A stretch of 64,000 bases of DNA from Spizellomyces punctatus DAOM BR117 (lineage: Eukaryota), in the NCBI GenBank assembly GCA_000182565.2, contig KQ257463.1. The stretch is one strand, 5' to 3'. Numbering within the stretch: position 1 is the first letter of the stretch; the number at the start of each line of letters is the position of its first letter. A model generated the notes under the pieces. That model was not told where the DNA came from and made no database searches. It worked only from the letters and a program-made list of their open reading frames with translations. Shown piece after piece: positions 15,536 through 27,151 of this stretch. A program made the translations under genes and the position numbers.

Positions 15536-17440
15536 ATGGCTGATCAGAATATACAACCAGAGGAAGACAGCGTGGTGCGTAAATCAGTATATTTAAGACT
15601 CGGATGTGGATTCTGATTTTCTGCTCTGCAGAATGGGGAGTTGCGGGAGAATGTGGACGCAGTCGAACCGAGCGCAGAGTCACAAGCACAGCAAGTTCCC
15701 GCTCAAGGAGAGAGTGATGAACCAGGGCAAGGGGAGCAAGCGCAGGCGGAACCCACACAGGATCAGCAAGGACAGGCAGAACAGACCGAATTGCAGACTG
15801 AACATGCGCAGGACGAGGTGATCCAAGAAGATCAATTGCAAGGCGAGCCAACACCAACAGACCAACTTGGTGCACAAGATAATGAAATACCCACCGAAGA
15901 GGAACAAAGTATTCCTCTGACAACTGATGCCACTGAAGCCGACGCACTGCACACGCCAGCAAGATCACCGACTCCAACAGCGCCCCTCCCTTTGTCACCA
16001 GAGCCATCCCAACAAGATACTCAGTTCGTTCCTCCCACAGCTCGCACACTCCAATCCCCACCCCCTTCAACACCCACCTACACATTTCAAAACACGGATC
16101 CATCTACGCTCGATGCCCCAATAACATTGACGACTCCGCTCTCCCGCGTCGGATCGGGCGCCAGTACTCCAGTGGAGGTTGGGTACATCCCACCTACAAC
16201 GCCAACACAAGAAGAGAGTGTACAAGAGGAGGAGCAAGTTGTGCCTGAGCCGATTCCACAGGGATTGGATAGAGAAGAGTTGGTGGCAAAGATTCGGGCC
16301 GAACTAGATGGAAAGGATAAATTGCAGGTGAGGAATGTGGCTCTACAGAATCGGTTAGGAGAATATTTCAGAAAGAAACGAGTGAGTGTTTTTCTTTTGA
16401 TGGCGTTGACGGTGTGAGTATTGGGTATTAAGCGATTCTGTAGACGGACGAAACGCGCGAAACGGATCCAAAGCCGCCGACCGACCTGACAACGCGTTAC
16501 ACTACCTCACTCTCCACCCTCCTCACATTGAACCAAACGCTTCAAGCCTTGCATCAAACCCACACCAAGCTCTCTACCGACTATTTGACCAAACTCACTC
16601 AAAAACAGGAAGAAGCTGCGGCGAAAGCAGCCGAATTCTCCACCTACAAACGTGCCATTGCCCAAGCGGCTGAGAATAGCCGGACTGGCCGAAAAATTGC
16701 TCCAAAGGTTTTGGAAGGGCTAGAGATCAATGAGGAAAGAAAGGAAGCCGAAGTCATTGAGGTTCGATTGGAGAATATAAAGTTACGGAATAGGCTGCGG
16801 AGAAGCGAAGGATTGTTGAGGCAAAAGGTTTGTTTAGGTAAACTTTTGGCCACCTCTTAAAATTGCTGACCGTTTCCCAATAGGAAGAGCTAGCGGATGG
16901 TCTGCACCTGATCGACTTTGAACAACTTAAAATTGAGAATGCGACCTATAACGAAAAAATCGAAGATCGCAATGAGGATCTCCTTAAACTCCGAAAGAAG
17001 ATCACTACCATCGTCCAGGTTCTTACGCATGTCAAGGAAAAGCTGCATCATCTTTCCCACGAGACCCGGGTGTTACAGGACACATTAGGGGGATTGGATG
17101 AGCAAGTCATGAGGAAACGGGATGAGCTGCCGGTCAAAAAAGGAGAGAGGGATAAATTGAGGAATGAGAATGCAGAATTGCGAAAACGGGCTGGATTGCT
17201 CGGATCGGTTGGGCTGTTGCGGGATTTTGAGAAACATGCTGTATGTTTCAATTTTCAGTTTGGCATTGTAGCATCTTGCTGCAGGTGTGATTCATTTTTT
17301 TTTTGTTCATAATGCAGGACGAAGCACAGGCCTTGCACGGCCAGATTAATGCTCTACGAACACGCCATGCAGAGCTCTCTGCGGAAATGCTTGGTGTCAA
17401 AAGAAAAATTCAAAAGGCACAGATTGTAGGAGCAATATGA
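15536..17440 (+). CDS. CCDC96: Cilia-associated coiled-coil protein CCDC96/CFAP184-like (DUF4201), multi-exon
   Basis: Acidic Q/E-rich N-terminus, then coiled coil with EELADGLHLIDFEQLKIENATYNEKIEDRNEDLLKLRKK and LLRDFE. Confidence 0.8.
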
Positions 17441-17698
17441 TTGCCACAAAGTACGTTTATATTTGGAAAAACTAGGAGAGAGGAAGAAAAACACAAGGGA
17501 AAAATATAGGGAGGGGATATACTAGTAGAAACCAAAGAGTAGGATATACACAAGAAGAGACACACACAAGTGGAGGCTTTGCAGAAAAGCAACAATAGAA
17601 TGCATTTGTGCAGGTTAACGGTCGGTCAAAAAGAATATGAGGTTCATTGAGGAAAGAGCTTTTTGTGCCTGTGCATACGAGAGAGAGATGTCTAAGTC

Positions 17699-18428
17699 CT
17701 ATGTACGATTGGCGAAATGCGCGACATTGGCGAGAATCATATCATACCCCAGTTTAATGATAATGTAGCCGCCGACACCAGCAGCGACAAACGCGCCAAA
17801 GAGTTTGATAATGAATCGACTAGCGTTGATCAATTTTAGCTCTACCGATATTCAAGAGGAGCAAACAAAAGGGCAAGATACGCTACCATCCGTCGTTGCC
17901 TTCCCAAATCTCAACGCCCCATACCCACCATTTCCATGTTGCCTTTCCCTCCAATCTTTTCCTGTTTTTTGTTTTTCTCCTTTTTCTCAATCCCGGTTCC
18001 GATGAGGTATCCGACCCACACACTGCGGCGCTGCTGCTGCTGCAAGTTTTGTATCCGTCCTGGTCTTCTGGTGGAGTGGGATTGGGAGGGACGTCGACAA
18101 TGGGCAAGGGAAGAGTGCAGTTTGCCGTGTTTACAAAAGGCAGCGGCGTGAGACTTCTCCCACTCGACAGAGAAATGATTTCCAAGTCTGAAAAGTCCCT
18201 TTTAGTAATTTCGACCCAGGACCAGTCTGTCCATGCAGGAGGCGGGGTTGGAGGCGGGCGAAGGAGAGCTGTGATGTGAGGAGAGAGAGGTGTGGCCGTC
18301 ATTCCATTGTCCAACGTGGCAGAGTGCTTTGTAAACGTTTCTTCTTCTGTCGTTGCCAATGTCCCTGTGGAGGCAAGGTCTTCGAGTCGTTCAATCAGCG
18401 TAGGTCGATACGGCGGCGGCGTATGCAT
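17699..18428 (-). CDS. Hypothetical protein with a basic patch and C-terminal hydrophobic segment (2 exons)
   Basis: ORF from MHTPPPYRPT. A downstream open frame FIIKLFGAFVAAGVGGYIIIKLG ends at TAG 17699-17701. The splice junction is not firmly resolved and no family was recognised. Confidence 0.4.
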
Positions 18429-18805
18429 GTGTGTGTTTTTGTGTGTGTGTAAATGTGTATATATGTGTGTTTGGGAAAAACAGTCAAAAAACACAAGAAT
18501 AACGACGATGATGACGGGAACGAGTGGCATATGTCACATTACAAGTCACATTATCCAGCCCTCCTGTACGACCGTATCATGAGATAAGATTCAATTTCAT
18601 ATTAAAAATAGATGCAGCCACTGGATCGAATGAGATGAAATGCAAGATGCCTCCCTTGATTTTCAAATGAATGGTTTGCATTATATGCAGCCATGAACGG
18701 ATTGCAATTACTATCCCTTGCGGCCATCTATGAGAGGAACTACTCTCCTGTAGCAGTTGCCACCTGCATGACGCTCCATGACTCAATATATCGACTCAGT
18801 TTTTC

Positions 18806-18813
18806 TATATAAA
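18806..18813 (+). promoter_or_regulatory. TATA-box-like element upstream of the stand-alone omegaRNA
   Basis: TATATAAA followed by a pyrimidine-rich tract, the same layout as the putative Fanzor promoter at 19708. Confidence 0.35.
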
Positions 18814-19192
18814 CCCCCCTCTTCCCCCATCTTGTTTCTTCCTCCCTCGACTCTCGAAGCATCTGCCCAATGCTCAAGTCCCATCATGAGAATGCCGCTC
18901 TGGTGCCGAGGACCTCGTCCGCCCGACAAATACAACATAACCCCTTGCAAACGCTGCTATATTGCTACGATCGCAGGTATATCTTGCTGATTTTTCCCAC
19001 GTGCATATTCCCAGTCCAATTCTGATTTGACTAGTATCTGAAACGTCCTCCGACTAAGAATTTCGGAATCAAAGGGCTAGTAGGATTTCTCTCGTGGTGG
19101 TGGGCGCTAGTTACCCGGTTGACCAACCGTTATCGCATGTGTAATTGTTAGCGATAGTTTTTTTACTTGTAAGGACTTGGTTAGCTAGTTGG

Positions 19193-19281
19193 CTTTTCCG
19201 AACCGGTTCTCGCCGGTTCATTCCCTGGTGTGCGCGGCACGACATCGGTTTTTTGCTCGCACACTATTCAATCCGTTAAGC
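19193..19281 (+). ncRNA. Stand-alone Fanzor omegaRNA-like RNA (74-nt scaffold 19193-19266 plus putative ~15-nt guide TTCAATCCGTTAAGC)
   Basis: First 38 nt are 36/38 identical to the element's omegaRNA (21678-21715). Same 74-nt length, ending in CACTA. Stems GAACCGG/CCGGTTC and TGGTGTGCG/CGCACACTA are kept, with compensatory changes. Confidence 0.8.
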
Positions 19282-19505
19282 GTCATTCCCTTTTCAAATG
19301 CAAACGTTCAATTGAAGGGAGATAAAAGTCTTGTGATGACTATGATTGAGTAAGCAATATCTCCATTTTAGGAAGGCTTTCACGTGAACACTATTGAGTG
19401 GTTCCTTTTTGGAACGGAGATCCCTGCACATGTGTAGGATCCTTTTTGTAGTTTTTAGGTAGGAGTCGTAGCTGGCAGTAGCGGTAGTAATGTCTCTGCT
19501 TCCCC

Positions 19506-19603
19506 AATGGCTGCCTAGAGGCTGCCTAATGGCTCCCTGATGGCTGCCTAATGGCCGTCTATCATAGTCTATACGAGTCCATCCTAGTCTATCCTAGTCC
19601 ATA
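19506..19603 (+). repeat. Degenerate minisatellite: 5 x 11-bp (AATGGCTGCCT) then 4 x 10-bp (ATCCTAGTCY), resuming after the transposon at 21751-21770
   Basis: aatggctgcct/agaggctgcct/aatggctccct/gatggctgcct/aatggccgtct, then atcatagtct/atacgagtcc/atcctagtct/atcctagtcc. Right flank reads acgatagtct/acgctcgtcc. Confidence 0.8.
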
Positions 19604-19631
19604 GTGCGGAGCCGATGGGTATTGGCACTAG
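19602..19631 (+). repeat. Left terminal inverted repeat (includes terminal TA / probable target-site duplication)
   Basis: 30/30 reverse-complement match to 21722-21751. Confidence 0.95.
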
Positions 19632-19707
19632 TACATAGATTCCAACCAATTTAATCATAATTTTACTCGATTTAGACTCATGAACTATGGTTTGATCCAA
19701 AAAATCC

Positions 19708-19715
19708 TATATAAG
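19708..19715 (+). promoter_or_regulatory. TATA-like box of the Fanzor gene
   Basis: TATATAAG about 50 nt upstream of the ATG at 19765, followed by a pyrimidine-rich leader. Confidence 0.45.
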
Positions 19716-19764
19716 TTGTCGTGCCCATTTTCCCAGGCTTTCATCTTTTCCCACAGATATCATC

Positions 19765-21663
19765 ATGCCGCCAAAGAAAAAGCAAAAGCTTGAAAAACTC
19801 GACAAACCTACTTGCTTACATACCTGCAACAAGACTTCCTTTGCAAAAGCTTTCTTGCCAAACGAGACCTACCGGCAGCGTCTTCTAGATTACATCGCCA
19901 TCATCCATCAACTCGCTGACCACGCTTCCCACGCTCTCAAATTCTACATCCTATCTGCACCAACCTTTCCCACGGTAAATGAAGATACAATCGAAGCAAT
20001 TCTCTATCTTCTCAACAAAGGAGAGGCTTGGCATCCAAGAAAGGAAGCAAAGAAGGCATGGCGGGATTGTTTGCTGCCATATGTTCAACGGTACTGCCAA
20101 ATCGTCGGCTTTGTTCACCCAAATCTACGAGGCGAGCAGCAATCAGTCAATTACCTGACAGCGAGTATGATGACGAACCTGAAAGTCAACGTTCAAGAGC
20201 ATTTCATGCAGATGCTCCTTCGGTATATCAATCTGCGGCTCGACGTGAAGGGACAGAAGCAGCGACTGCCACTGAAAAGCGATGCGCGGCAAGCTTTCTT
20301 TACTCGGCTACGCTACTTGAAGTCGGTTTTCCTTTTCGAAACTATGCCAGAATCACTGGATGACTTGAGCATTCTTGAAAACGAGATTTTAGAAGAGATC
20401 TGGACACTTAACCTGCCATTTCCTGATCAAGACAAGCCGCTTGCCTACCTCATTGCCATCGACGCGATGTCCTTCTTTCCTGCATACTGCCGACTGTCAA
20501 AGTTGTTCGAGCAGCAAGGTTTTCAACAGTTCAGCGCGATACCTCTGCGCCGCTCTCTCATCCAAAGCCATATTCGCATCGACACGGTCATTCTCTACGC
20601 CCACATCCTCTGCATCACCCGCCAAGAAGCAGAAGCCGTAGAGAAGGTCGATTTATGGTTGCGCGTCTGTAATCTACGTACCAAAGCTTTTCGGTCTCGC
20701 TGTGGTATGCATTTTGAAGGCTCGATCACGACGGACGGAACCTCGGTGTCTGTATACCTAAAGCACCCAGAAGCTGACAAGTACGGAAAGCGCGGAGCGA
20801 GAAAGTCAGCAAAGGCTCTAGCAGCTGAGGTGAAGGCGCTGTATGTGGAAAACAACTTACCTGCTTGTCGAGCAGCAGAGAATGTCGTCGTTATCGACCC
20901 AAACAAACGCGACATTCTCTACTGCCAAGACAGTAATGGTACAACGTTTCGCTACACCGCCAATCAACGCTGCAAGGAGACTGGAAGCCGTCGATTTGCA
21001 AAAGAACGGCAGCGGATGAAAGCTGGCGGTATTGACCTCATAGAATCACGTATCCCAAGCCACAAGACGATGAACCTCATAGACTTCATGCGTTACCTTC
21101 TCGTTCGCCGCGCTGATTGGGATCGTCGAAAGGAGTTCTACTCCCACCCTGCTCATACTCGATGGAAATGGCACGCATTCATAAACCGTCAGAAGAGCGA
21201 ATCAGACCTCATATCCAACATGCGCAACAAGTACGGCGAAAACTTCACCATTGTGATGGGTGATTGGAGCGACGCCGGTCGAACTGCGAGATTTCAGACC
21301 TCATCAAAGACGAAAGGTTGGCGCACCCTCTTAAAGCGGAACAGGATCAACTGCTTCCTTCTCGACGAGTACAAGACCTCATCTGTCTGCCCTCGCTGTT
21401 TGGCCTCATCTGATGACTTCCTTGAAAAGGACTTCAAAACACGACCTCATTCAAGACCTTGGCGCCGTCGCGAAGGCAAGATTGAAAAAGTCCATGGATT
21501 GCTGGGTTGTACCAACCCTAACTGTCAGCAAGCCTGGACGATGCGCTACTGGAACAGGGACACGCTGAGCACCTGCAACATGCTGATGATCGTGCAATCA
21601 ATGTTGGATGGACACGGTAGACCAGAGGTGTTCAGTCGGAGGAGTGTTCCAGCCGTAGCGTAG
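19765..21663 (+). CDS. Fz1: Fanzor1 RNA-guided DNA endonuclease (TnpB/Cas12-like RuvC, SpuFz1-like), 632 aa, intronless
   Basis: N-terminal NLS PPKKKQK. RuvC-I VVIDPNKRDIL (D378), RuvC-II LLDEYKTS (E535), Zn finger CPRC...CTNPNC (C542, C545, C582, C587), RuvC-III WNRD (D599). The sequence closely resembles Spizellomyces SpuFz1 as I recall it. Confidence 0.95.
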   Translation: MPPKKKQKLEKLDKPTCLHTCNKTSFAKAFLPNETYRQRLLDYIAIIHQLADHASHALKFYILSAPTFPTVNEDTIEAILYLLNKGEAWHPRKEAKKAWRDCLLPYVQRYCQIVGFVHPNLRGEQQSVNYLTASMMTNLKVNVQEHFMQMLLRYINLRLDVKGQKQRLPLKSDARQAFFTRLRYLKSVFLFETMPESLDDLSILENEILEEIWTLNLPFPDQDKPLAYLIAIDAMSFFPAYCRLSKLFEQQGFQQFSAIPLRRSLIQSHIRIDTVILYAHILCITRQEAEAVEKVDLWLRVCNLRTKAFRSRCGMHFEGSITTDGTSVSVYLKHPEADKYGKRGARKSAKALAAEVKALYVENNLPACRAAENVVVIDPNKRDILYCQDSNGTTFRYTANQRCKETGSRRFAKERQRMKAGGIDLIESRIPSHKTMNLIDFMRYLLVRRADWDRRKEFYSHPAHTRWKWHAFINRQKSESDLISNMRNKYGENFTIVMGDWSDAGRTARFQTSSKTKGWRTLLKRNRINCFLLDEYKTSSVCPRCLASSDDFLEKDFKTRPHSRPWRRREGKIEKVHGLLGCTNPNCQQAWTMRYWNRDTLSTCNMLMIVQSMLDGHGRPEVFSRRSVPAVA

Positions 21664-21677
21664 ATTAGTTAGATTAC

Positions 21678-21766
21678 CTTTTCCGAACCGGTTGTCGCCG
21701 GTTCAATCCCTGGTGCGGGTGCTAGTGCCAATACCCATCGGCTCCGCACTACGATAGTCTACGCTC
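21678..21766 (+). ncRNA. Fanzor omegaRNA (scaffold 21678-21751 overlapping the right TIR, plus ~15-nt flank-derived guide CGATAGTCTACGCTC)
   Basis: Starts just after the Fanzor stop codon. Hairpins GAACCGG-ttgtcg-CCGGTTC and TGGTGCGG...CCGCACTA. The layout is that of known Fanzor/TnpB right-end RNAs. Confidence 0.88.
21722..21751 (-). repeat. Right terminal inverted repeat
   Basis: CTAGTGCCAATACCCATCGGCTCCGCACTA, the reverse complement of 19602-19631. Confidence 0.95.
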
Positions 21767-22014
21767 GTCCATGGCTGTGTGTCCATTCAATCTTGTAGTG
21801 TAGAAAGAGCCGCTGGTTTTGGGGGGCTGACGTCTGTGGCTGTGCCATGCTGTGGGATGGCGCAGGTTGCTAAACTCATGTGACACGCGTATGAATCAAT
21901 TTTTAACTTTAAGGAAAGAGCGACAAAAAGTAGAAGGACCGTTTCCCGTTATCTTTCCCGCTATTTGACGTTCGAGCGCCATTTCCCAACTTTCAAGCAT
22001 CTCGAGGGCAGGCA

Positions 22015-23643
22015 ATGATGAAGGCACTGCTTTTCATCGCCTTGGTCTCTGGTGGAGCGTGGGCTCAAAGTATGTACTGGGTGATGCAGCGAGCAGTCTT
22101 GTTTGAATTTGTATACTGACAAATTCACCCACTTTTCAGGCCCATGCGAGCTTACGGACAGAATATGTCTGACTCAAACCACTCTGCAAATCGGATCGCC
22201 TTTCTCCCTTTACCTCTATTTCGCTGGATTTCAACAAAAGGATCCGGCCAAATGGACAATATCCCTTTTTAAGGGAGACTTGCGGGCAAACCCTCAAACC
22301 GATCCTTGCCGTCCCGGCCAACAATTGATTTACAAGTGGGAAGCACCCCCGTTTACCGTCGTATCGACAAATGTTGCCAAAGGGGATTTGGTAATTGATC
22401 CAAAGGTTGTGAATACCATTGCTGGCGACAATCAGTACTTTTTTCAAGCCACGGATGGGACGCAAGGAGTTTGTCCCATGGGGCCCTTTGCAGGGGTGAC
22501 GCACGTCCAACTGGGTGAGTACATTTAGACTGGAAAAAGTTGGCACACGACGCTAGGCAAGCATTGCCAGCCTTCTAGTAGGAAAACAATGCTGCATAAG
22601 AGTACGGTGACACGAGTGCAAACCTCTTATGTTCAGGTTTTCTCACGCGGGAACGAAAGGATCGCATGTTTTTGCAAGACATTGAATTTTATCGTGATGG
22701 CTATCGCTGTATATTTCCGCCTGCATAGCTAGGCGCTATTTTATACAAGGTACTAACGTACTGGCTGTGGTTGATAGCTCTTGCGACTACCTCCTCCACA
22801 ACAGCACCAGCAACATCGACCACGTCGACCGCCGCACCCACCACCGTTAAGGAAGCTCCAGCCCAAACACCGCCAGCAGGTGTCTTCCCGACTGGGCCTA
22901 CTGCTCCCGCCACTGCAAGCAGCTCCTCGTCGTCATCACCAAACGTTGGATTAATTGTGGGTGTCATTTTCGTCGCATTGATAATATTATCCGCTGGCGG
23001 ACTCTTCTTCTTTCGACGAAAACGAAAGAACAAGCGAAACTGGGGAATGGAGGGCGGCGCAGGTGCTGCTGCTGCGTCTGCCGCAGTTGTGGGATCGTCC
23101 AAGCCAAACATGTCAGAACGAAAGGAGACTATTGGATCATTGGCTCCATCCGAAAGTGCCTCGCTTGCCAGGCTCGTTTCTATACACCCAGATCCAGAAG
23201 ACGAAATTTTTGTTGGACCGCCAATACCTGCCTCATTGGCTAGACCGCAATCAGCAGCAGCTTTGGCAGCCGAATCAACAGCCACCGCTCCTCTCCTTCC
23301 ATCTTTGACCACTCAACCAGAAATCGCCACACCCCGCCTCAGCTCCGCAACCGACCCATTCTCGGATGTTCATGCAGATCCCTTCTCCGATCCCATTCCA
23401 CCACCACAACCTCCACCATCGTCATCACACCGCCGTTCCATTCTGGCGTCGCTCCACTTGGACCGTGACTTGGTCTCTAAAACTCCTGTGTCTTCCAGCA
23501 GCACGTCTGCAAACGATCGACATGCCTTTGCTCTGATGGTTGCACAGGCGTTCCGAAAGGAGCTTAACGATCCACAGATGGAGTGGGATCGAAAAAGTGG
23601 TGATTCAACAGAGAGTGACAGGGATCAACCGTCTGCCTCGTAG
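22015..23643 (+). CDS. Single-pass type I membrane protein (signal peptide, Cys-containing ectodomain, S/T stalk, TM, basic stop-transfer); Mid2/Wsc-like topology
   Basis: MMKALLFIALVSGGAWAQ signal peptide, then an intron. T/S/A-rich stalk, then VGLIVGVIFVALIILSAGGLFFF followed by RRKRKNKR. Confidence 0.7.
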
Positions 23644-23998
23644 CATGTGACCTGGTCGGTTTTTGTATAGATTCTGAATGTAGATGGGTCGACCGAGTAA
23701 TGATAGTGAGCGTAAGGACGTTTAGGACATTGGTACCCTCCGTAGCATGTTTGTTTTCTTCTTCTTGAGAACCCTCATTCACATATGTGCATTTGGGTAG
23801 TGGCTGCTGTCATGCAGTGTTCTAGTAGTTTGTAACTGTTACATTTTGTCTTTCTTTTGTATCTAATTTCACTTTGTGTTCTATTGATGAAAAAGATGAA
23901 CTATGCACTTTTGCTGAGAAAATGTTCCTTTTTGAACAACATACAAAGTATGTACTATGACCAGCACTATGCACGTTTACAACCAAAACGACCACAGC

Positions 23999-24717
23999 TT
24001 AAGCCTGCTTTTGAATCGGCAGGAAAAGCTTGAATTCCGGCGGCAGCTCCTCTTCGGAATATAACCGATCCGAGAAATAAATTCTCCTGATTCTGCAATT
24101 CGCATGAATTTGCACACGGAGAGTCTCAATGTAGTTTGTTCCGTAGGCTCTGCGTGTAAAGTCGGACAGATTGAACTGGATTTGGTTCCACCCATCATCG
24201 AGACGCATAGGCATTGTGCAGATAAAGGGCTTCACACGCGTTGTTGACTAAGAATAAAGACATCATATAAGAGTAAGCATGTGCATCCCATCTGGAAACT
24301 TTGTGAACCTGTTGATGAGAACGGTTACCTGATAATTGCTTGCCCTGAACCTCCTCCGAACATTCTTATCATCCAACACTTGGACTTCAAACGTAAAGTA
24401 CTTTTTCAGGTTTTTGATGATCATCACTAAAAACGGCAATTTGATTCCCAAGGTTCTGTTCTGCTGGGCGGGGCAAGTAATAAAGTTGGTGGAGACATTG
24501 GTGCCGATGATTTCGAGAACAGAGGATTGAATGTCATTGTCCGTGATGCGCTTGATGTGCCCATTACGAACTTTTTTATCCCAAATTTGAAGCGGCTTTG
24601 AGCCAATGCTGTAGAGAATGGATAGGAAGCCCGACTGTTTTTTGTAATCGGTGTTAGATGGTTGAATGGAAAGATGAGAATGAGAGTTTGCCATACCTGA
24701 AACGTGTTGCGGAACAT
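23999..24717 (-). CDS. CFAP20: Cilia- and flagella-associated protein 20 (BUG22), 3 exons
   Basis: [36 protein letters not shown]...[62 protein letters not shown]. Confidence 0.97.
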
Positions 24718-25162: not shown

Positions 25163-26962
25163 ATGACGACCCTGCATTACACGCCCACCAGTCCAGAAGT
25201 GGGTGTGTATCTGTTCATTGGCGAACGCGGACTACTCTCCTCGACCCTTCGTGGTTCATTCTCTGTCCCGCATGACATTTTGGAAGTACTTCAAGAGGGG
25301 AAGATCGACGTTGTGTCGACCTGGGAGAAAGCTCGCGACAAACGTGTTCAATATGTTGTAGCGCATTTGGCCAAGGAGCGGAGCAGAAACATGGGGTTCG
25401 TGAGATCTGATTTGGTTCACGAGATTGTCGCGGCACAGACACCGAAAGAGGGCGATGGTATGTCCAAAGTTGTCGGCATGTTCAGGAGCGCGTGATCTTC
25501 TGATAACCAACATGACATCCAGTAAAGATTACTTTGGTACTTGAATCTGGAGAGCAAGTATTTCCTGCAGCGTGGTATGTGGTTTTTTACGCTTGGAGTG
25601 CTATGAAAGAAAGCGAATCTGAACAATTTTGGCATTGTGCTCTATCTAGTGCGGTGGCCAGAGCCTTCCCTCTCTACTCCCGTAAAGCCAGCGTCGCCAA
25701 ACTCAAGCCCCGGAATGTTTATGTGGATTTCACAGTACCCGGTGGAGTGGAGGACGCAACATATAAACGATTGAATGTTGTCACCAATGCCATCCGCACA
25801 GCTGCGAGATTGGTTGATACCCCTTGCGGAGATCTGAACGTTACCACTTATGTATCTGAGATTCGTTCCCTGGTGTCTCCTTTCCCATCCGTTACAACCA
25901 CTGTCATCAGTGGGGAGGAGCTGCAGCAAAAGGGACTGAACGGAGTTTACTCTGTCGGCAAAGCAGCCGTGAACCCTCCTGCTCTTGTCATTCTTACGCA
26001 TACGCCAAAGACCGCTACAATCGCAGCACGTCCAGTGTTTGTTGGTAAAGGCATTGTATACGATACCGGCGGTTTGAGTCTCAAATCTGGCCCGGGTATG
26101 GTGGGGATGAAGGAAGACATGGCTGGCAGTGCAGCGTGTTTAGGGGCCTTTTTGACCGCGGTAGAACTCGGTCATGAAGGTACTTTCAGCGTTGTGCTTT
26201 GTCTAGCAGAGAACGCAATTGGGTCAAGAGCGCAGAGACCCGACGATATCATTCCCATGTTGTCTGGTAAAACGGTCGAGGTAAACAATACCGACGCGGA
26301 GGGGCGGTTGGTCCTTGGAGGTAAGAAGCGTCCATTGCAATGGCCGCTTGGTTACTCTGCTGACGTCTACATCTCACCGTCCACAGATGGGGTCGCATAC
26401 GCGACAAAGTATCTTGATCCAACTCACGTTGTCGATATTGCGACATTGACTGGGGCTCAACTGATCACGACGGGCAAGAAGCACGCGGGTGTCTTATCCC
26501 GCAACGCCGATTTCGAAAAGATCGTTTTGGACGCTGGACAAAAAACCGGAGATTGGTGTTTCCCGCTATTGGTTCGTCATGTCATATTTTGTATCAATGC
26601 TGTGCATTACACGGACTCATCCCACTTTTGCTATTCGCTCCAGTATGCGCCAGAGATTCTAAAAAAGGAGTTTGATAGTAAAATTGCCGACATGCGGAAC
26701 AGTGTGGCGGATCGGATGAATGCCCAATCGTCTTGTGCTGGGCATTTCATTGAGGAGCATCTTGCAGCGGAATGGGACGGTCGTTGGGCGCATGTCGATA
26801 TGGGTGAGTTTTTGGTTTTCAATTTTACTTTGGTGGGAGCTGTGATGTTGAGTACGGTTTGTTTTGTCGTTACTAGCTGGGCCGGGTGCAAAAGATCAAC
26901 GTGCAACTGGATTTGGTGTCGCCTTATTGGTCGGTATCTTGGACGAGATCAAAAAGAACTAA
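25163..26962 (+). CDS. NPEPL1: M17 leucyl aminopeptidase, NPEPL1-like (multi-exon)
   Basis: VGKGIVYDTGGLSLK, MKEDMAG, NTDAEGRL, DIATLTGAQ, ARAFPLYSRK, DMRNSVADRMNAQSSCAG. Confidence 0.85.
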
Positions 26963-27151
26963 ACTTGTGTATACATGTCTGGACACTTTGGACGAGGAGG
27001 ACATGTGTGCTTCCTTGATAAAGTAAAAACTGAAATATATATCTTTCTTGACTTTATATTGAATCAATTGTTCATTCCAAGTGTGTTGTCTAAACCCACA
27101 AAATCCAAAAAAAAACAACGAACCCAATGCAATACCAACTTTTCCACATGT

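Follow-up and report, generated by a model that had tools for sequence, protein, structure and literature searches.

Bacterial IS200/IS605 TnpB elements have ORF-less derivatives that bear an omegaRNA. The locus described here would resemble them in being non-autonomous, in keeping the guide-RNA end and in relying on a nuclease encoded elsewhere; it differs in lying in a eukaryote and in having a Pol II-like transcript with a spliceosomal intron. Its closest described relatives are the ghost Spu-1 loci of Spizellomyces punctatus (n=134), which lack a Fanzor ORF (Saito et al., 2023, PMC10432273). As the main text of that paper describes them, these elements have a conserved body of about 550 nt, an inverted repeat of 30 nt at either end, the left one preceded by CA, a right end of which about 75 nt are similar to the Fanzor omegaRNA region, and a variable flank as guide. 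Ghost and Fanzor (Fz) repeats differ at seven positions, the ghost omegaRNA has a 3-nt bulge in stem 2 in place of an 8-nt loop, and ghost scaffolds of 75 nt, taken from four loci, support editing by SpuFz1 in human cells. Passages of a 2026 paper (PMC13434818) sort 126 unique ghost scaffolds, each 74-76 nt long, into several clades and report lower editing for those distant from the canonical scaffold. The initial annotation of the present DNA had stated that ORF-less ghost omegaRNA loci were reported in Spizellomyces, which PMC10432273 bears out.

The window, a 64,000-nt stretch of contig KQ257463.1 (assembly GCA_000182565.2) from S. punctatus DAOM BR117, holds an intact Fanzor element and a second 74-nt scaffold of the SpuFz1 omegaRNA type at 19193-19266, on the same strand and ending 335 bp before the left inverted repeat of that element, which starts at 19602. 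With a probability of roughly 80%, this orphan scaffold is the right end of an ORF-less copy of the ghost Spu-1 family of S. punctatus. The copy is largely ordinary; atypical are the lack of a detectable left inverted repeat and a private outer stem 2. Ghost omegaRNA loci have already been described and tested in S. punctatus, and finding such a scaffold adds little, being a rediscovery of published loci. The features on which the comparison rests are as follows.

19181..19192, + strand: lead-in, homologous to 21665-21677, directly after the Fanzor stop codon (blastn, alignment).
19193..19266, + strand: ghost-type omegaRNA scaffold, probable right end of a ghost-family copy (alignment, fold, a covariance-model score of 96.2 bits and the published stem-2 shape).
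Parts of this scaffold: hairpin 1 at 19200-19219, a 6-nt linker, hairpin 2 at 19226-19266 with a 3-nt bulge, and the CACTA end.
19267..19281, + strand: putative 15-nt guide TTCAATCCGTTAAGC in single-copy flanking DNA, its length taken from the main text of PMC10432273.
19602..21751, + strand: intact Spu-1 Fanzor element, with which the orphan was compared, with its inverted repeats, ORF, scaffold (21678-21751) and guide (21752-21766).

A repeat search of the window matched 19193-19230 to 21678-21715 (38 nt, 95%), and blastn lengthened this match to 19181-19230 against 21665-21715 (51 nt, 88%, E 2e-11). Homology to the Fanzor element thus begins at 19181, just past the position of the Fanzor stop codon. 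In an ungapped 74-nt alignment of the orphan with the Fz scaffold, 49/74 columns are identical. Columns 1-38 agree at 36/38, the two exceptions being column 17 in the loop of hairpin 1 and column 29 in the linker; columns 39-69 hold 23 of the 25 differences, and columns 70-74 (CACTA) hold none. Counted on the same alignment, the last 30 nt of the orphan differ from the Fz repeat at 20/30 positions. The shared-core pattern occurs twice in the 64-kb window against 0 expected occurrences. A covariance model built from the two scaffolds, as the initial annotation had suggested, recovered only these two when run on the window (96.2 and 95.2 bits), the next best match scoring 10.2 bits (E 0.48). The description given there of a second 74-nt scaffold, 36/38 identical in its 5' half with both changes outside the stems, ending in CACTA 335 bp from the Fanzor element, lacking a Fanzor ORF and followed by a different flank, agrees in every part with the alignment and the sequence.

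Blastn found no further copy of 18500-19330 in the window, and tblastn found no Fanzor coding remnant upstream of the orphan: the intact ORF was the only significant match, and hits outside 19765-21660 were at chance level. A Rfam search of 17000-24000 with E up to 1 returned only a chance Flavivirus-5'UTR row (E 0.95), the conserved 33-nt core had no exact match in metagenome contigs, and a literature search with the scaffold sequence as the query word retrieved unrelated papers only. Since no tRNAs were found in the window, the idea that the GGTTCA..TCC motif derives from a tRNA was given up, and a sigma-70 and terminator scan was set aside as not meaningful for a eukaryote.

Both scaffolds were predicted to adopt the same two-hairpin fold, the orphan at -31.0 kcal/mol (z -4.73; 0/200 shuffles as good) and the Fz copy at -31.2 kcal/mol (z -3.98; 1/200 shuffles as good). 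On the common structure of the two, 34/34 cells are paired, and the orphan keeps 9/9 closing pairs as well as the inner helices. In the predicted folds, stem 2 of the orphan has a 3-nt bulge at the place where the Fz copy has an 8-nt loop. The orphan shares with the canonical SpuFz1 omegaRNA (8GKH; main text of PMC10432273) the two stems, the 6-nt linker, a 15-nt guide position after CACTA, and columns 1-38 and 70-74 save columns 17 and 29; it differs in not standing behind a Fanzor gene and in the changes G17 to C and A29 to U, which are ghost-family letters.

Two pairs have changed on both sides, 39-69 (C-G to U-A) and 41-67 (G-C to C-G), and one, 42-66, on one side only (G-U to G-C). The two double and one single compensatory changes that the initial annotation had seen in the closing stem are therefore present in the pair count, for which a shuffle control is powerless with two sequences (117/500). 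In the main text of PMC10432273, C40-G70 of the SpuFz1 omegaRNA makes no contact with SpuFz1 and is dispensable, and G17 is one of the loop nucleotides listed as contacting the protein. Carried over via the 6-nt linker, C40-G70 of the paper, whose scaffold is 1 nt longer, probably corresponds to columns 39-69. All three compensating pairs and 23/25 of the differences fall in these columns. The protein-contacting parts (the 5' UCC, stem-loop 1, the linker and the base of stem 2) are identical at 36/38 plus 5/5 columns, and the exceptions, G17 to C (a listed contact) and A29 to U, are both letters typical of the family: C was read at 19209 in 19599/32648 RNA reads, and the orphan's letter T at position 21706 of the Fz copy in 3717/4294. 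Both differences in the 5' half are ghost-family letters, not private mutations.

Because the compensating pairs lie in a protein-free, dispensable part of stem 2, they are no evidence for selection on 19193-19266 itself. What they do is set the ghost type apart from the Fz type as families, both RNAs needing stem 2. The earlier argument that covariation points to selection on the RNA at this locus does not hold, since the changes separate the ghost type from the Fz type in a stretch that the protein does not touch; covariation is silent on domestication and on selection after ORF loss at 19193-19266.

To describe the surroundings of the scaffold, two raw-read runs and two contig runs were mapped on 18300-21900, and reads at least 80% alike were counted; depths are therefore sums over paralogs, and only 7935/130352 mapped RNA reads were at least 99% alike. 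DNA depth per direction in a ChIP run (X18) was 73-80 at 18542-18662, 101-119 at 18663-18783, 181-188 at 18784-18904, 316-364 at 18905-19146, 104-122 at 19147-19267 and 2.5-5.4 at 19268-19509. Between 19267 and 19268 the depth per direction drops from about 113 to about 4, which gives the repeat a sharp right edge at 19266/19267, which is the end of the scaffold. The left edge is gradual, ChIP coverage being uneven and the far left flank (18300-18420) standing at 37-46. At 19045, 538/569 DNA reads had a letter other than that of the window, so most reads come from other copies. Family homology extends down to at least about 18720, with deletions at 18740-18745 in 94/110 DNA reads, depths again being paralog sums. 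The multi-copy repeat spans at least 18784-19266, and probably about 18.6 kb to 19266. A TG-rich microsatellite lies at 18423-18470, where reads were skipped or cut.

The scaffold is thus the 3' end of a repeat unit of 480-660 nt that is transcribed and spliced as a unit. It had been called a stand-alone omegaRNA, with many copies named as the mark of an ordinary ghost element; DNA and RNA reads show that it ends a longer, transcribed repeat, and the many copies seen in the DNA reads probably place it among the published ghost Spu-1 elements. The published unit of about 550 nt, as given in the main text of PMC10432273, compares with 558-564 nt between two inverted-repeat arms that bracket the segment here.

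The single-copy flanks of the window showed 0 differences over 18300-18493 and 19247-19628 against contigs from a public S. punctatus run. The dominant expressed ghost type departs from the orphan after 19240 (4028 RNA reads and 3 contigs, 0.99 agreement); beyond that point its sequence can be aligned by eye to that of the orphan, with the same helices kept. DNA depth at 19235 was only 23 reads, and the contig over 19247-19628 had a single-copy depth of 30.8, which indicates that the outer stem 2 (about 19241-19266) is private or low-copy.

Transcription of the family could be followed in an RNA run (X17) and gave these features.

18806..18813, + strand: TATA-box-like TATATAAA, about 58-65 nt upstream of where family RNA coverage begins, a putative promoter.
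18871..18976, + strand: exon 1 of the ghost-family transcript (RNA reads; start approximate).
18977..19034, + strand: 58-nt GT..AG intron, spliced in RNA reads and never in DNA reads.
19035..19192, + strand: exon 2 upstream of the scaffold, with the deepest RNA and DNA coverage of the unit.

RNA depth on the + direction rose from 6 in the bin 18663-18783 to 3012 in the bin 18784-18904, and over the four bins of 18784-19267 it was 3012, 5312, 20195 and 12925, against 14-80 on the - direction. Family coverage starts near 18871, and 5708 reads had loose ends before 18881. The intron joint 18974>19033 (cut +2) was crossed by 412 RNA reads on + and 1 on -, and by 0 reads in the DNA run X18; a further 7297 RNA reads had the end of exon 1 as a loose end at 19033. 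From the GT..AG orientation, the RNA is + sense. Another run (X3), whose label DNA is a guess, holds the spliced form in one contig at depth 4510, and presumably contains cDNA. A short ORF at 18871 (about 40 aa when spliced) was rejected as coding: the dominant paralogs have ACG where the window copy has ATG.

The orphan copy itself probably yields transcripts, amounting to a few percent of those of the whole family. The window's own letters were found in 185/2914 RNA reads at 19162, 198/5317 at 19176 and 266/5378 at 19179, and in the single-copy bins 19268-19388 and 19389-19509 RNA depth was 69.7 and 22.1 on + versus 0.92 and 2.92 on -. The ghost scaffold contains a run of six T at 19248-19253, which is five in the dominant type. 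Such a T run would stop RNA polymerase III, here before the guide; together with the TATA motif and the intron, it points to Pol II-type transcription. In X17 reads a run of C stood ahead of the family sequence at 18881 (5708), 19189 (10086) and 21670 (5889); these C runs may be a library tag that shows where RNAs begin, some 16-20 nt ahead of each scaffold.

In X17 the ghost scaffold had a family RNA depth about 10 times that of the Fanzor-linked scaffold, and in this one public RNA run ghost-family RNA lay far above both the Fanzor mRNA and the Fanzor-linked omegaRNA. The ghost family appears to form an independent transcription unit that comprises a TATA-like motif, a spliced 58-nt intron and a 3' omegaRNA; this bears on the biogenesis of eukaryotic omegaRNAs. 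Neither "intron" nor "spliced" occurs in the main text of PMC10432273, and a spliced ghost precursor may not have been described before.

On its left side the copy departs from the published elements, in which the main text of PMC10432273 places a left inverted repeat preceded by CA; neither is detectable at the orphan. An inverted copy of the orphan's own end gave chance matches only in the 64 kb, a search with the Fz left end scored 19 and 18 where shuffles averaged 22.1, and with the 23-nt end of the dominant family, reversed, the score at 18468 did not exceed those obtained elsewhere in the window. There is no CATAGTG upstream of the orphan, no left inverted repeat with a preceding CA was found there, and the candidate left junction GCAATTACTATCC lacks CATA. 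The matching left end that the initial annotation had failed to find upstream is thus missing in these searches too, all of which stayed at chance level. That no left inverted repeat could be detected makes it probable that the copy is immobile; no transposase is known for ghost elements. A different inverted repeat brackets the ghost segment.

18643..18704, + strand: left arm of the flanking inverted repeat, with raised read depth.
19269..19333, - strand: right arm, taking in most of the putative guide, at single-copy depth.

Its score of 43.5 was reached by 3/1000 shuffles and 0/600 geometry-matched controls. It could stem from insertion into a palindromic site or into a small foldback element; alternatively, the right side could contain an old ghost fragment in inverted orientation. 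Within it, the 9-mer AACGGATTG of the left flank is the reverse complement of CAATCCGTT in the putative guide. The missing left end and this bracketing repeat may inform how ghost elements insert or decay.

The assignment to the ghost family suggests how the orphan could function. Ghost Spu-1 copies would be non-autonomous and related to the Fanzor transposon, of which they would retain no more than the omegaRNA scaffold, about 86 nt from the stop codon to the right terminus, the rest of the unit being apparently unrelated to Fanzor. The TATA-type promoter at 18806-18813 may drive a precursor, which may be trimmed to the scaffold and a 15-nt guide. Any intact SpuFz1 paralog, among them the one encoded 335 bp further downstream, could take up this RNA in trans, and the loaded SpuFz1 could then cut CATA+TTCAATCCGTTAAGC sites. 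The flank TTCAATCCGTTAAGC is unlike that of the Fz copy. In the window it had 1 other match at 3 mismatches versus 2.0 expected, and CATA+TTCAATCCGTTAAGC is absent from the viral contigs; the search for CATA+guide sites proposed earlier therefore yielded none in the 64-kb window or the viral contigs. Several points count against the ghost-family assignment and its functional reading: the copy has no detectable left repeat, the read depths are paralog sums under uneven ChIP coverage and leave the left edge of the repeat blurred, its last 30 nt differ from the Fz repeat at 20/30 positions where the main text of PMC10432273 gives seven, the contact nucleotide G17 is C, and passages of PMC13434818 report lower editing for distant ghost scaffolds.

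In the strongest of the other readings, the locus is a decayed relic: the left end of a former ghost copy is gone, and transcription persists only because the family promoter still fires, giving an RNA with no target or role. We regard this as unlikely, though a serious possibility. It fits the lack of a detectable left repeat, the candidate junction GCAATTACTATCC without CATA, a guide with no match above chance in the window, and the small share of RNA reads with the orphan's letters, only about 4-6% at 19162-19179. The scaffold itself, however, is undecayed, with its 9/9 closing pairs, inner helices and a fold (-31.0 kcal/mol) that 0/200 shuffles equalled, and its nucleotides outside the dispensable region all match the family type. 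The relic reading differs from the ghost-family reading that we prefer only in whether the RNA is used.

A more speculative and rather improbable extension takes the locus as an early step from a selfish to a host-kept Fanzor guide, an immobilised, transcribed cassette with its own promoter, intron and private, paired stem 2. On a broader version of this view, each ghost element may be a complete omegaRNA expression unit, spliced and of Pol II type, and such elements may provide the larger part of the omegaRNA pool in the cell.

It is very unlikely that the scaffold is a solo right-end fragment of about 86 nt that came by chance to lie beside an unrelated repeat. Fanzor homology is indeed limited to 19181-19230 and DNA depth is uneven across 18.5-19.27 kb, but family RNA coverage runs unbroken from about 18871 into the scaffold, paralog reads join 19098 or 19100 straight to 19180 (4 and 10 reads), and the loose ends of paralogs (19096, 19189 and 19240) lie inside the unit rather than at a boundary between two repeats.

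Least credible is a fixed, host-domesticated trans-guide for defence or regulation, an immobilised ghost cassette beside an intact Fanzor gene: the absent left end makes the copy probably immobile, its outer stem 2 is private yet perfectly paired (at a DNA depth of only 23 reads at 19235), an intact Fanzor gene of 632 aa follows on the same strand after 335 bp, and the locus is transcribed past its own end, but it is one member of a large mobile family with the same architecture and much higher expression, its compensating changes fall where the protein does not touch the RNA, and no target was found in the window or viral contigs.

The domesticated guide proposed in the initial annotation has nothing in its favour beyond the missing left end, and domestication is not supported. 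What stands of that proposal is an ORF-less omegaRNA scaffold with its own flank, of a kind able to act in trans with SpuFz1; its stand-alone nature, the selection and the domestication do not.

The intact element downstream has inverted repeats at 19602-19634 and 21719-21751 (33 nt, 97% complementary). Its ORF at 19765-21663 encodes 632 aa, 97% identical (616/632) to SPPG_09423 of S. punctatus DAOM BR117, and matches the SpuFz1 structure PDB 8gkh with 1267 bits; 17 named S. punctatus paralogs were among the 53 proteins found with it. Pfam, in the library version used, gave no family for this ORF, and its identity comes from the SPPG_09423 and 8gkh matches. In X17, as family sums, sense RNA was 0-4 over 19752-21445 and 1185-1550 over 21567-21808, which includes the scaffold; the omegaRNA region thus accumulates far above the Fanzor mRNA. 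Reads in the opposite direction numbered 221, 125, 98 and 20 versus 77, 4, 2.4 and 2.7 sense over 19631-20114, which suggests antisense transcripts over the left end of the element and the start of its ORF.

Over the 5' two-thirds of the Fanzor ORF, DNA depth per direction was about 60-230, and it climbed to 580-1225 at 20841-21566. Such a rise would be expected if the genome contained many Fanzor copies truncated at the 5' end; the main text of PMC10432273 counts 19 full-length Fanzor copies among 42 loci. The left junction of the element is CA|TA, as published there. The element stands within a short tandem array, with 11-nt units at 19506-19555 and 10/20-nt units at 19557-19602, and its right flank (21752-21775), which is its guide, resembles a further, diverged 20-nt unit. 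About 4 kb downstream of the element, an ordinary host gene at 25603-27018 has a 471-aa ORF with a Peptidase_M17 catalytic domain (E 1e-74).
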